Positions 17,525-39,884 of a stretch of DNA of 43,598 nucleotides are shown piece by piece; within the stretch, counting starts at the first letter, position 1, and the number at the start of each line of letters is the position of its first letter. Made by a program: the position numbers and the translations under genes. This DNA comes from Candidatus Krumholzibacteriia bacterium (GTDB lineage: Bacteria; Krumholzibacteriota; Krumholzibacteriia; LZORAL124-64-63): the NCBI GenBank assembly GCA_036351155.1, contig JAZBOO010000110.1:1-43598 (forward strand). Direction: 5' to 3'. The notes under the pieces were generated by a model. It did not search any database and was not told where the DNA came from. It saw only the letters and a list, made by a program, of their open reading frames with translations.

Positions 17525-18514
17525 ATGATCAAGGTTGAAGGCCTTTCGCGGCGCTACGGCAAGCATCTGGCTGTGGCCGATCTCGATTTCGAGGTCGGCC
17601 GCGGCGAGGTGGTGGGCTTTCTGGGGCCCAACGGGGCGGGCAAATCCACCACCATGAAGATTCTCACCGGCACGCTGGCACCCTCTGCGGGAAAGGTCCA
17701 GGTGGCCGGGCATGACCTTCTGGACGAGCCCCTGGCCGTGCGCCGGAAGGTGGGTTTCATGCCCGAGCACACTCCGCTCTATCCCGACATGAGTGTGCGC
17801 GGTTTTCTGGAATTCGTGGCCGACCTCAAAGAGGTCCCCGGCGCGGAGGTGGCCGGCCACCTGAGCGCCCTCATCGCCACCACCGGCCTGAAGGATGTGG
17901 AAGACCGCCTGGTGGGCCACCTGAGCCACGGCTATCGCAAACGCGTGGGGCTGGCGCAGGCCCTGGTGGGCGATCCCGAGGTGCTGATCCTCGACGAACC
18001 GACCAGCGGGCTCGATCCGCATCAGATCGTGGAAATCCGCCAGCTCATCAAGGGCTTCCAGGGGCAGCGCACGGTTCTGCTGAGCAGTCACATTCTCAGC
18101 GAGGTGTCGGCCACCTGTGAGCGTGTCCTGATCCTGGACCGCGGTCGCCTGGTGGGACAGGAAAGCGCGGCCGGGCTGGAGGATCTGGGCGGGTGGACCT
18201 CACCCCGGGTGGTCCTGTCCTGGGATGGAGACCGCCAGGGTGTGGCCGAGGCCCTGGGCCTGGTGGCCGGGGTCGACGATGTGATCGTGACCGAGGATGG
18301 GGCGGAAGTTCTGATTGCCGGCAATCCCATTGACGTCCGTCCCCAGCTGGTGGAAACGGTGCTGGCCGCCGGCGGCCGCCTACAGAATATCAAGGATCTC
18401 GAGGCCAAGGGGCCGTCCCTGGAAGATCTGTTCCTCATGCTGACCGGCTCCGGCCCGGCCAAGGACACCCCGGATCATCCCCCCACAGACACCGAACCGG
18501 AGGACCAGCCTTGA
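17525..18514 (+). CDS. ABC transporter ATP-binding protein (GldA-like)
   Basis: Walker A GPNGAGKST, signature LSHGYRKRVGLAQAL, Walker B ILDEPTSGLDP, LSSHILSEV. Confidence 0.93.
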   Translation: MIKVEGLSRRYGKHLAVADLDFEVGRGEVVGFLGPNGAGKSTTMKILTGTLAPSAGKVQVAGHDLLDEPLAVRRKVGFMPEHTPLYPDMSVRGFLEFVADLKEVPGAEVAGHLSALIATTGLKDVEDRLVGHLSHGYRKRVGLAQALVGDPEVLILDEPTSGLDPHQIVEIRQLIKGFQGQRTVLLSSHILSEVSATCERVLILDRGRLVGQESAAGLEDLGGWTSPRVVLSWDGDRQGVAEALGLVAGVDDVIVTEDGAEVLIAGNPIDVRPQLVETVLAAGGRLQNIKDLEAKGPSLEDLFLMLTGSGPAKDTPDHPPTDTEPEDQP

Positions 18515-37170: not shown

Positions 37171-37312
37171 CCGGATGGTTCCCTGTTGTTCCTGATTGTT
37201 CCCTGTCGTTCCTCGAATTGAGGACCTCACAGTCGGAGGATGCAACCGCCGTGCCGCTGTACTATGCTCTGGGCGACAATAACTTTTCCTTCCCGTGAAA
37301 GGTCGCCGAACG

Positions 37313-38125
37313 ATGGATCTCAAGTTGCGCGGAAAAACCGCGCTGGTCACCGCGGGCAGCCGGGGATTTGGCAGGGCTGTGGCCCTGGAACTGGCGCGCG
37401 AGGGCGCCCACATCGCCATGTGCGCTCGAGGCGAAGAAGATCTGGCGCAGGCCGCCACCGAGGTCCGTGCCGCCGGCAGGGAAGTCTGGGGCGAAGCGGC
37501 CGGCAAGCTCCTCATCCAGCCGCTGGACGTGACCGACCACGAGGCCGTCTCCGGCTTTGTGACCCGTGTCGAGAACGAGCTGGCGCCGGTGGATCTCCTG
37601 CTGGTCAATGCCGGCGGCCCCCCCGCAGGGAACTTCGAAGACCTGGAGCTTTCCCACTGGGAGGCGGCCTACCGCCTGACCATTGAAAGCGCCGTCCGTC
37701 TGTGCCAGCTGGTCTTGCCGGGCATGAAGGCCCGGGGCTTCGGTCGTATCGTCAGCATCACCTCCGTGAGCGTGTGTCAACCGGTGGAGAACCTGGTGCT
37801 CAGCAGCGTTCTGCGCCCGGCCATCCAGGCCTTGACCCGCACCCTGTCGGCCGAGTCGGCCGCGTATGGCGTGACCGTCAATGCCGTGGCTCCCGGCTTT
37901 CACACCACCAGCGCCGTGGAGCGGCTGATCACCAAGAAAGTGGAGCTCACCGGCTGCACCCCCGACGAGGTGATTGCCGGCTGGACCCGGGAAATCGACA
38001 TGGGCCGCCTGGGCAGACCCGAGGAGCTGGCCGCCTTGATCGTTTTCCTCATGTCCGAACGCGCCAGCTATATCACCGGGCAGGGCATTGTGTCGGATGG
38101 GGGCTGGGTCAAAGGCCACTTCTAG
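37313..38125 (+). CDS. Short-chain dehydrogenase/reductase
   Basis: MDLKLRGKTALVTAGSRGFG, VNAGGPP, GVTVNAVAPG, GRLGRPEELA and SYITGQ...DGG motifs. Confidence 0.93.
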   Translation: MDLKLRGKTALVTAGSRGFGRAVALELAREGAHIAMCARGEEDLAQAATEVRAAGREVWGEAAGKLLIQPLDVTDHEAVSGFVTRVENELAPVDLLLVNAGGPPAGNFEDLELSHWEAAYRLTIESAVRLCQLVLPGMKARGFGRIVSITSVSVCQPVENLVLSSVLRPAIQALTRTLSAESAAYGVTVNAVAPGFHTTSAVERLITKKVELTGCTPDEVIAGWTREIDMGRLGRPEELAALIVFLMSERASYITGQGIVSDGGWVKGHF

Positions 38126-38138
38126 GAATTCGCCCGGC

Positions 38139-38166
38139 TTGACATCCCGGCCAATGAAGCTACATT
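38139..38166 (+). promoter_or_regulatory. Sigma70-type promoter
   Basis: TTGACA (38139-38144), 16-nt spacer, TACATT (38161-38166). Confidence 0.65.
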
Positions 38167-38261
38167 ATCGGTCAACGAGTTGCGAAGATATAAGGCTGAA
38201 CTGGAGGCTTCCTCCTTCTTGGTGTCAGCCCATTGACTGACTATTTTCGAAAGATCAGGCC

Positions 38262-38426
38262 ATGCTTGAGTTTGCCCTTTTCATCGTATTCTGGATTGTC
38301 CTGGTGAATTTCATATTCCCCAAGATGGGCCTGAAGCCCGGTTGAGGCCCCAGCGCCTGCTCGATCGGCGATCGGGAACCGGAGAACAAAAAAACCACCC
38401 AACCGGAAATCAAGCCCGGCGAATAA
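38262..38426 (+). CDS. Putative small membrane selenoprotein (54 aa, Sec28; 27 aa if UGA is a stop)
   Basis: MLEFALFIVFWIVLVNFIFPKMGLKPG-UGA(38343)-GPSACSIGDREPENKKTTQPEIKPGE-TAA; hairpin 38360-38376; TAA ends 3 nt before the GGAGG RBS of the next gene. Confidence 0.6.
38360..38376 (+). promoter_or_regulatory. Candidate bacterial SECIS element 1
   Basis: CTCGATC-GGC-GATCGGG stem-loop; loop starts with G, 21 nt after the UGA. Confidence 0.5.
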
Positions 38427-38441
38427 AGTGGAGGTGTGGCG

Positions 38442-38666
38442 ATGCCACTTTATGAGTTCACCTGCAAGAAATGCGGACACAATTTCGAAGAGTTGATGAC
38501 CCTCAGCGAAGTCGAGTCCGGCAAGACCAAGTGCCCGGCCTGCAGCTCGAAACGCCTCGAGCGCGGTTTTTCCAGCTTTGCCACCGGCGGTGGGGACAGC
38601 CTGGGCTCAGGTGGGTTCTCGGGCGGCGGCTGTGGCAGTGGCGGCGGCGGCTTCACCTGAGGCTAG
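38442..38666 (+). CDS. FmdB-family zinc-ribbon protein, probably a selenoprotein ending in -FT-U-G (ends at 38660 if UGA is a stop)
   Basis: MPLYEFTCKKCG..FEEL...CPACSS..LER.FS.F, then Gly-rich tail CGSGGGGFT-TGA-GGC-TAG; GGAGG RBS. Confidence 0.85.
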
Positions 38667-39761
38667 CCAGCCAGGGCGACCGTGTGTCGTCAACAAGATC
38701 ATGCGCGCCGGAAGCCTCGGGTTTCCGGCGTTTTTTCTGAGAGTGGGCCGATAGGACGGCGAACATTCCCGGACCTGGGATGACCGCTGATGCACCAGGG
38801 CATGACACGCACTGCACAGCGTGGTCAGGTTCTCGGGATCGTGGGTCCCGCCCCGGGCGCGGGGGATGATGTGGTGGATCTCCAGGAAGTGGGTGTGGGG
38901 GCAGCCGGGAGTCTGGCACCGGTGGCGGTCGCGGGCGAGGACCAGGCGCCGCGTTCTGGGCGGAATGGTGGTGGTGTTGCGGTGGTCTGGCTCGCTGATC
39001 TGGGCGTCGCACTGGAGGCGCGCGGTTTCCTCGGGCGAAAGCGTGAGCTCCCCGCGCGCCGTCTGGACCGTGGTCTTTTCACAATCCGGGCACTGGTGCA
39101 CGTGGATCTGGACCGGGGGCGCCGTGGTGGGTTTTTCCAACGGGTTGGAATTTCCATCAACGAAATTCTGCATCACTTCCAGCAGCGCCTCGACCTTGTC
39201 TGCCGGCAAGCCGCCCTGCTTGCGCAGCTTCTCCCACAGGGCTTCGTAGCGGGCCAGCTGGGTGGGTGTCATTTCCAGGATCACGCGCTGGGGGATGGGG
39301 GCGGCCGGCACGGGCTCCTCGGGAAAAATCGCCACCTGTCCTTTCGCCACCTCGGCAGCCCGGGCCTTGGCTTTTTTCACCGTGCTTTTCAACCGGGCGT
39401 GCGACTGGGTCAGCGCCAGATCCACCCACTCCTTCTCGGTTTCCGGACTGGCCACCGCCACAATGGTGCGGGTGCGGCCATACCCCAGCTTCCCCTCTTC
39501 GACCTTCTTTTTCACAGCGGGCAGCTCATCCAGCTTCTCGCAGATCTTCATGAAGTCGTAGGCCTTGGACTGACTCCAGCCCAGCTCCTGCTGGGCATAC
39601 AGGGGCATGGAGGAGTACCCCAGCTCACGGTACAGCTTCCGCTGGCGAATCTCGCCAAACCAGAGAATGGCGTTCTGGCGGGCCATTTCCATGGCGTGGT
39701 TTGCTTTTTTGAGGTGCTGGTCGGCCGATTTGGCGGGTAATCCCTTAATAAACGTGAGCAT
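38607..39761 (-). CDS. HNH endonuclease with N-terminal HTH-like region (DUF222-like architecture)
   Basis: C-terminal IPPRTRR.VLARD..RC..PGC.....LEIHHI.P...GG......NL.TLC..CH...H; N-terminal YRELGYSS...YA..ELGWS.SKAY; GAGGA RBS before ATG 39761. Confidence 0.88.
   Translation of the reverse strand: MLTFIKGLPAKSADQHLKKANHAMEMARQNAILWFGEIRQRKLYRELGYSSMPLYAQQELGWSQSKAYDFMKICEKLDELPAVKKKVEEGKLGYGRTRTIVAVASPETEKEWVDLALTQSHARLKSTVKKAKARAAEVAKGQVAIFPEEPVPAAPIPQRVILEMTPTQLARYEALWEKLRKQGGLPADKVEALLEVMQNFVDGNSNPLEKPTTAPPVQIHVHQCPDCEKTTVQTARGELTLSPEETARLQCDAQISEPDHRNTTTIPPRTRRLVLARDRHRCQTPGCPHTHFLEIHHIIPRARGGTHDPENLTTLCSACHALVHQRSSQVRECSPSYRPTLRKNAGNPRLPARMILLTTHGRPGWLASGEAAAATATAAAREPT
38675..38691 (+). 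promoter_or_regulatory. Candidate bacterial SECIS element 2
   Basis: GGCGAC-CGTGT-GTCGTC stem-loop; loop 20 nt after the UGA, with G at loop position 2. Confidence 0.5.
38706..38736 (+). terminator. Intrinsic terminator after the fmdB-like gene
   Basis: CGCCGGAAGCC-TCG-GGTTTCCGGCG followed by TTTTTT. Confidence 0.85.
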
Positions 39762-39884
39762 AGCGCTATCCTCGATCTTGAAGCCTTTGGGAGGCTTTAT
39801 CAAGATAGCGAACACAACACGAATCCGCCAGGAGAAAAGCGTAAAAAACACAAAATTCTAGAAAAACACCAGAGGGCCCCGACC

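Follow-up and report, generated by a model that had tools for sequence, protein, structure and literature searches.

The 43,598-nt contig JAZBOO010000110.1 of a Candidatus Krumholzibacteriia bacterium (GenBank assembly GCA_036351155.1), analysed here over its full length and called the window, carries a small open reading frame (ORF) with an in-frame TGA, a probable selenoprotein gene, directly upstream of a gene for an FmdB-family zinc-ribbon protein (Table 1). On the forward strand the small ORF opens at ATG 38262 with MLEFALFIVFWIVLVNFIFPKMGLKPG, meets the TGA at 38343-38345, continues with GPSACSIGDREPENKKTTQPEIKPGE and closes at TAA 38424-38426. It comprises the ATG and 26 sense codons, the TGA, 26 further sense codons and the TAA, which on read-through give 54 residues with selenocysteine (Sec, U) at position 28 and Cys at position 33. 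The ORF list computed under translation table 11 gives a 27-residue ORF alone at this site. The first-pass annotation, made from the sequence letters, had proposed a 54-residue ORF with a transmembrane helix, the in-frame TGA, a Cys five codons further on and the terminal TAA, all of which were confirmed by rereading the sequence and by AlphaFold2 and hydropathy analysis.

Its view that the ORF is packed as in an operon also stood. The TAA is followed by AGT and then by GGAGG, and the FmdB start codon, placed at ATG 38442 because the TIGR02605 model matches residues 1-51 of the product, lies 7 nt past the GGAGG; termination at the TGA would put 96 nt between the small ORF and this ATG. In 39 copies of the gene pair, 6-68 nt (median 26) separate the read-through stop from the FmdB start codon. 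The ribosome-binding site (RBS) of the small ORF is weak in the window, as had been remarked, and GGAG or AGGA stands 6-12 nt upstream of the equivalent start in most relatives.

Table 1. Features of the small ORF and its transcription unit (window coordinates).
Feature	Position	Strand	Basis
Small ORF, putative 54-residue membrane-anchored peptide with U28 and C33	38262..38426, including stop	+	Reading of the sequence; conservation in relatives
Predicted transmembrane helix, residues 2-21	38265..38324	+	AlphaFold2, hydropathy
In-frame TGA, proposed Sec codon U28	38343..38345	+	TGA in 41/41 copies
Cys33 codon, proposed Sec partner (U-x4-C)	38358..38360	+	TGC/TGT in 39/41 copies
Hairpin CUCGAUC-GGC-GAUCGGG, proposed bacterial SECIS (selenocysteine insertion sequence), overlapping codons C-S-I-G-D-R	38360..38376	+	Covariation
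GGAGG Shine-Dalgarno sequence of the FmdB gene	38430..38434	+	Read from the sequence
Sigma-70-like promoter of the two-gene unit: TTGACA, 16-nt spacer, TACATT	38139..38166	+	10/12 consensus matches
FmdB-family zinc-ribbon gene, TGA (38658-38660) read through	38442..38666	+	TIGR02605, PF09723, conserved TGA
Second hairpin GGCGAC-CGUGU-GUCGUC, proposed SECIS of the FmdB TGA	38675..38691	+	Conserved hairpin in copies
Intrinsic terminator of the unit	38705..38740	+	12-bp stem (8 GC pairs), 3-nt loop, T run

Conservation was followed in 48 loci from species-representative genomes, nearly all of them metagenome-assembled genomes labelled Candidatus Krumholzibacteriota or Krumholzibacteriia, which were retrieved through the neighbouring peptidase (27-65% identity). 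By tblastn and motif scan the small ORF was found in 40 of the 48, always between the SDR and FmdB genes. Seven of the other eight break off at a contig edge: L012, L013, L021, L022, L026 and L047 do so ahead of the site, and L010 has just 612 nt of upstream sequence, which holds an HNH-like fragment. The eighth, L048, is a 27%-identical outlier from Longimicrobium. With the window included, TGA occupies the same codon in 41 of 41 copies, and an ATG or GTG start lies 26-30 codons ahead of it in every one, whereas the terminal stop varies (17 TGA, 12 TAA and 12 TAG), indicating that stop codons turn over at this evolutionary depth. A Cys codon follows the TGA at +5 or +6 in 39 of the 41 copies; six copies, forming one clade, carry an extra codon between U and C, which is an indel of exactly three bases. 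The conserved core of the peptide reads P-[KR]-[LMF]-G-[LIV]-x2-3-U-x4-5-C, for which the earlier search motif W.......FP.MG proved too narrow. Since the start position, the TGA and a downstream hairpin are kept in all 41 copies, the ORF at 38262-38426 is not a product of chance. TGA is also the commonest ordinary stop in the genome of the window (18 of the 32 genes), so that a global reassignment of UGA does not apply.

Two copies depart at the second Cys, which is replaced by Asp in L005 (2158-2334, reverse strand) and by Gly in L023 (5646-5825, reverse strand), with TGA and hairpin kept in both. The L005 locus also has no FmdB gene behind the small ORF, a PAP2 gene being directly next.

Downstream of the UGA, the codons for S-[I/V]-G-D-R, with the sequence UCG-[A/G]UC-GGN-GA[U/C]-CGR, can form a stem of 6-7 bp closed by a GGN loop. 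In the 41-sequence alignment 97.9% of the cells are paired, compared with 22-58% when the partner strand is slid, and RNAalifold returns the same 6-bp stem. Of the 40 distinct rows, 29 have A-U at pair 31-39, 11 have G-C and none is unpaired there (RNAalifold, with all 41 rows, counts 29 and 12), and pair 28-42 is U-G, U-A or C-G. The switch from A-U to G-C joins an exchange between Ile and Val to a silent one between GAT and GAC. Its carriers are the VPT clade, L005 and, inside an otherwise ATC/GAT clade, L019 and L029; this scatter indicates that it arose more than once. The loop reads C-G-G-N-G in all 41 copies, and the distance from UGA to loop is 24 nt in the six copies with the extra codon and 21 nt in those that have a four-codon spacer, the window among them.

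These properties can be compared with the bacterial SECIS model described in PMC13188914 (Fig. 2). The model specifies a stem of 4-16 bp, an apical loop of 3-9 nt that has the pattern N1-G-[G/U]-N-N2 with G in its first two positions, a UGA-loop distance of 16-37 nt and an energy threshold of <= -7.5 kcal/mol. The first hairpin agrees with its loop pattern, stem length and UGA-loop spacing (PMC13188914). In the Haft and Gwadz preprint (10.1101/2022.07.06.499078), a 7-bp stem with a GGU loop is what is expected of a Gram-positive SECIS. No conserved lower stem was found below the hairpin in the 41 copies. In the window no Rfam family reached its gathering score, and near the locus there were just two chance matches (E values of 3-9).

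Variation by codon position indicates that the part of the ORF before the UGA is coding and, as judged from the sequences, that the same phase is carried on past the TGA. In this head region the entropy at the three codon positions is 0.96/0.35/1.44 in one set of copies (n = 32) and 0.69/0.26/0.97 in another (n = 9), compared with 1.86/1.87/1.85 in the leader; after the UGA, in the same phase, it is 1.35/0.84/1.38 at codons +1 to +4 and 1.37/1.15/1.57 at codons +11 to +14. All four Pro codons are used at +2, and both TCN and AGY codons encode Ser at +4. Read in frame 0, the tail contains 5% hydrophobic residues and 73% residues of the set DEKNQSTP, with no stops, compared with 16% and 12% hydrophobic residues and 8 and 25 stops in the other two frames. 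The openness of frame 0 past the UGA was rejected as coding evidence in itself, frame +1 being at least as open.

Database searches extended the family and returned three forms of it. A word-based search with the single peptide gave no relatives, and when 1.84 billion representatives were searched with the single sequence the sole match was a 1574-residue protein, which was rejected as a relative. Its repeated G.GP..SIGDLDGDGK units, which we take to be of FG-GAP/VCBS type (a label given from reading, with no family scan), resemble residues 19-43 by chance. With the 41 sequences combined into a profile, on the other hand, 104 proteins were recovered at E <= 1. In 97 of these the last residue is the one just before the U position (94, plus three that have variant motifs); most of the truncated entries have 29 residues and the form M-P-x-W-L...MRWVLPRLGVPT, within a range of 26-29. 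Five proteins have Cys at the U position (P0003, P0005, P0007, P0016 and P0029), the first four with C-x4-C and P0029 with the first Cys alone. P0003 shares 50% identity over 50 residues with the L039 copy (E = 6e-20). None of the Cys forms retains the S[IV]GDR motif, as expected if the hairpin is a SECIS, because the motif would then be imposed by the RNA element and not by the protein. Two further proteins, P0008 and P0039, have Trp at the U position and keep the second Cys; on the evidence of the protein entries alone, they could have real TGG codons or a TGA called under a table in which UGA is Trp. One truncated relative is labelled Bryobacteraceae, and the family therefore reaches beyond Krumholzibacteriota. 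A look-up of a Cys form in the ESM Atlas gave a 0.88 lead to an unnamed cluster and nothing more.

With the 41-sequence alignment, AlphaFold2 predicts a helix at residues 2-21 followed by coil, the mean pLDDT (predicted local distance difference test) score being 93 and 87 in the first two 10-residue blocks, and the best 17-residue segment has a mean Kyte-Doolittle hydropathy of 2.56. Flanking charges are -0.17 on the N-terminal and +1.29 on the C-terminal side in the 41 copies (-0.82 and +1.94 in 80 database forms). By the positive-inside rule, hydropathy and flank charges together suggest an N-out, C-in topology, which would place U28 and C33 on the cytoplasmic side.

The FmdB gene that follows is probably a second selenoprotein gene, judging by its own conserved UGA, which the first-pass annotation had overlooked. 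Its product matches TIGR02605 (E = 2.8e-17; 62.5 bits, cut-off 31.3) and PF09723 (54.7 bits, cut-off 34.4), and contains an N-terminal CxxC-x17-19-CxxC ribbon in which C8, C11, C31 and C34 are invariant among 38 copies; AlphaFold2 predicts a zinc ribbon at residues 1-45 and a disordered tail. Read through its TGA, the window protein would end ...C64-G-S-G-G-G-G-F-T-U73-G74, followed by TAG. The TGA is present in 38 of 38 complete copies, always after ...G-F-[T/S/A], and is followed in frame by Gly, Ala-Ser, Gly-Ser or Gly-Val and then by the true stop, the Gly codons being GGC, GGT, GGG or GGA and the Ser codons AGY or TCC. Starting 19-26 nt from this TGA there is a hairpin whose loop reads CG[U/G]RN (36 of the 38 copies by automatic pick, two placed by hand); 89.1% of its cells are paired and 7 of 7 pairs have changed on both sides, in an alignment anchored on the best stem, which favours pairing. 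Taken as pentaloops, the loops of both window hairpins start at position 24 counted from the U of their own UGA. Among the best 120 of 629 FmdB homologues, 113 end in G[FYW][T/S/A], six end there in AFT, RFT or GFG and one differs, and no Cys form of the tail was seen in this set. The independent conservation of a UGA and a hairpin in this second gene argues that these organisms decode UGA as Sec.

In four loci (L031-L034) a T run directly abuts the FmdB hairpin (UUUUAUUUU in L033), so that this hairpin may double as an intrinsic terminator there; a separate terminator is present in the window and in many other copies. Searching the window for TGA codons with a CG[GT]NN-loop hairpin behind them gave 6 matches against 3.1 +/- 1.6 expected and no further candidates, the four extra matches being out of frame with real genes or at ordinary gene ends. 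The TGA with a GGCCGUGCGCC hairpin behind it at 17713-17750 (forward strand), which scores 19.9 bits with a covariance model of the FmdB hairpin, was taken as a chance match because its TGA is out of frame within an ABC ATPase gene (17525-18514).

Taken together, we assign a probability of about 0.8 to the small ORF being a real gene for a 54-residue, membrane-anchored selenoprotein, as far as sequence comparison can tell. An uncharacterised bacterial selenoprotein family, as first proposed, is supported by the lack of any Pfam or NCBIfam match, the invariant UGA, the covarying hairpin and the Cys homologues. Two outcomes that had been named beforehand as refuting it, a lack of homologues and a lack of conservation 3' of the UGA, did not arise: there are 40 syntenic copies and 104 database relatives, and the second Cys, the hairpin, the coding phase and the hydrophilic tail are all kept past the UGA. 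The search for Cys-containing orthologues and for SECIS covariation that had been recommended yielded the five Cys forms and the A-U/G-C switch at pair 31-39.

Several observations weigh against this assignment. The Cys forms are rare (5 of 104), and both they and the 97 truncated forms are known as protein only, so that TGA as the stop of the latter is not established. None of selA, selB, selC or selD was seen at these loci: the window contains no tRNA and its 49 larger ORFs gave no Pfam match to this machinery, and the 48 loci likewise contain no tRNA. The tail is hardly constrained, with 85/79/103 differences at the three codon positions in 22 non-independent pairs, and frame +1 is open over 0.84 of the post-UGA interval compared with 0.74 for frame 0. 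Folded alone, the minimal hairpin reaches -6.5 kcal/mol in the window and -7.5 on average, 15 of the 41 copies attaining -7.5, and its stability does not exceed that of shuffled sequences (z = 0.22 for the 60 nt after the UGA and 0.00 for 320 nt). Finally, the covariance model of the FmdB hairpin, which recovers its own site with 23 bits (E = 0.011), misses the small-ORF hairpin at E <= 10, and a shared RNA class is therefore not demonstrated.

Part of this evidence would also be expected if the gene simply stopped at the UGA and encoded a 27-residue membrane peptide, the hairpin then being an intercistronic RNA element that controls, for example, translation or stability of the FmdB message. 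ORFs of 26-29 residues ending at this point are what has been called in 97 of the 104 relatives, the strongest conservation downstream (S-I/V-G-D-R) coincides with the hairpin, and both the weak constraint on the tail and the openness of frame +1 accord with this account. We nevertheless consider termination at the UGA unlikely, since it leaves unexplained why all 41 copies have TGA here when the second stop is variable, why a UGY codon lying outside the stem is conserved, why Pro at +2 and Ser at +4 show codon-family variation, why phase-0 periodicity and a hydrophilic frame-0 composition persist, and why homologues exist that continue through a Cys and keep the second Cys.

Decoding of the UGA by something other than Sec, for instance by Trp through near-cognate decoding with the hairpin as stimulator, finds some support in the two proteins with Trp at this position and in the Sec machinery of these genomes being unverified. 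This is a very improbable account, however, given that Cys is the commoner replacement (5 vs 2), that the Trp forms may themselves be TGA codons translated under a UGA = Trp table, that loop pattern and spacing fit the bacterial SECIS model (PMC13188914) and that a second UGA with its own hairpin occurs in the next gene. We know of no description in bacteria of hairpin-stimulated read-through of a non-Sec kind.

Least probable of all is that the small ORF serves chiefly as a selenium-sensing leader, in which read-through of the UGA brings ribosomes to the FmdB RBS and couples FmdB synthesis to selenium supply, with the peptide itself being minor. This would fit the short distance that always separates the read-through stop from FmdB (6-68 nt to its start, with a median of 26 among 39 copies), the weakly constrained yet open and hydrophilic tail and the apparent need of FmdB itself for Sec. 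Against it, amino-acid selection clearly acts on both the helix and the P-[KR]-x-G motif, the second Cys is kept, the Cys forms would be unable to sense selenium and L005 retains the ORF with no FmdB gene behind it. Such a leader role can nonetheless coexist with the selenoprotein reading.

If the small ORF does encode a selenoprotein, the promoter listed in Table 1 would drive a two-gene transcript on which ribosomes start at ATG 38262, and the single hydrophobic helix of the nascent peptide would anchor it with the N-terminus out and the C-terminus in. At the UGA, the hairpin would act as a bacterial SECIS and recruit SelB and Sec-tRNA, leading to Sec insertion instead of termination, and translation would proceed past Cys33, adding a short tail that is hydrophilic and poorly conserved, up to the TAA just before the next RBS. 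The Sec-x4-Cys pair would thereby come to lie some 8 residues from the cytoplasmic face of the membrane. The FmdB product, with its glycine-rich tail ending Cys-x8-Sec-Gly and its own SECIS placed past the true stop, would then act through this flexible Sec tail on the anchored Sec/Cys pair. We infer SelB-dependent Sec insertion, a selenenylsulfide and the partnership with FmdB in this scheme.

For the pair of proteins, the most likely function would be thiol/selenol redox chemistry or the handling of soft metals at the inner membrane face; the suggestion draws on the Sec/Cys pairs, on the anchoring of one protein in the membrane and the flexible Sec tail of the other, and on the transcription of both genes as one unit. 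A more far-reaching and rather doubtful extension is that the two genes form a self-contained selenium module, widespread in uncultured bacteria, which might work as a minimal selenolate relay, similar in principle to thioredoxin reductase, or as a Se/S metal site; the synthesis of both parts would be gated by selenium supply, because each needs its UGA read as Sec.

The wider surroundings of the two-gene unit consist upstream of the SDR gene (37295-38125) and, divergently, an M1-like peptidase gene, and the remainder of the window contains a ribosomal-protein/SecY/RpoA cluster and housekeeping genes. Scanning 1.2 kb gave two promoter-like sites against 0.2 expected, and the pattern TTGAC[AG]-N15-19-TAnnnT stands upstream of the small ORF in 38 of the 41 copies. 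Right after the -10 element a conserved box was noticed at 38169-38189 (CGGTCAACGAGTTGCGAAGAT in the window, AGTCAATAAACTGCGCA and variants at other loci), a loose pattern of which matches 18 of the 41 copies; it could be an operator or a leader element. On the reverse strand, between the FmdB and PAP2 genes, an HNH endonuclease/DUF222-type ORF (38607-39851; PF01844, E = 2e-11) gives a partial IscB-like match below the cut-off, and its 3' end extends over the FmdB tail, second hairpin and terminator, which lie on the opposite strand. Among the loci, L010 only has a fragment matching it, and it looks like a window-specific insertion.

With respect to novelty, the window read-through peptide has no Pfam (E <= 1) or NCBIfam match, matches of the 41 members to these databases are all at chance level (best E = 0.035), and there is no match for any of the seven full-length database forms (for the Cys forms, none in Pfam at E <= 5). 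The family is absent from the 119 families in Table 1 of PMC13188914 (May 2026), which in that table include no single-pass anchor with U-x4-C; the model comparison with these families covered those having Pfam, TIGRFAM or NCBIfam identifiers. The available portion of Table S1 in the BSepDB supplement has no Krumholzibacter entry, and a full-text literature search, outside whose coverage Haft & Tolstoy 2025 falls, found no description of the family. By the catalogues checked, the proposed selenoprotein family thus appears to be uncatalogued.

Selenoproteins are systematically missed by gene callers, and the present gene is doubly hidden because it is tiny and is cut at the UGA to a 27-residue stub. 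If the selenoprotein assignment is true, it adds a family whose layout, a Sec/Cys pair on a single-pass anchor, is not listed for bacteria in the catalogues checked, and it gives the FmdB family a Sec position that is new to it. The two genes would make up a two-selenoprotein operon that is kept throughout a candidate phylum and has relatives in other lineages. Re-annotation would then be due for the FmdB entries ending ...GGFT and for about 100 database entries that are 26-29 residues long. The compact UGA-hairpin cassette, with its natural compensatory variants, also offers a handy test of SECIS rules beyond model organisms.

Among known systems, the eukaryotic selenoproteins SELENOK and SELENOS have one transmembrane helix near the N-terminus and a disordered cytosolic tail carrying Sec. 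The small-ORF product is like them in this layout, and the analogy drawn by the first-pass annotation stands to that extent; a relationship in sequence does not, since no Pfam match was obtained at E <= 1. Unlike in SELENOK and SELENOS, the proposed Sec lies 8 residues past the helix with a Cys five residues on and not at the extreme C-terminus, and decoding would depend on a bacterial hairpin within the ORF instead of a SECIS in the 3' untranslated region. There is also a parallel with bacterial selenoprotein genes of the Escherichia coli fdhF type with a SECIS inside the ORF, which share the in-frame UGA, the stem-loop directly downstream with a small G-G/U apical loop, a distance of 21-24 nt from UGA to loop, the existence of Cys homologues and the constraint that the SECIS places on the codons it overlaps. 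Compared with the consensus bacterial SECIS model, the small-ORF hairpin is short and, folded alone, often under the energy threshold (PMC13188914).

For the FmdB partner, the TIGR02605 family is already catalogued with selenoproteins of a UxxU form, in which two Sec residues occupy a zinc-binding CxxC (PMC9312934 and PMC13188914). By contrast, the window FmdB has Cys at all four ribbon positions, and its proposed Sec comes next to last in a Gly-rich tail. Thioredoxin reductase has a C-terminal tail of the sequence Gly-Cys-Sec-Gly. Two bacterial families, 'UXX-star' and 'KCU-star', are named in Table 1 of PMC13188914. The FmdB tail has no homology to these C-terminal Sec tails, the NCBIfam models of UXX-star and KCU-star do not match it and its Cys lies 8 residues away instead of adjacent; what it would share with them is a Sec placed 1-2 residues from the end of a flexible tail and a SECIS located past the true stop.

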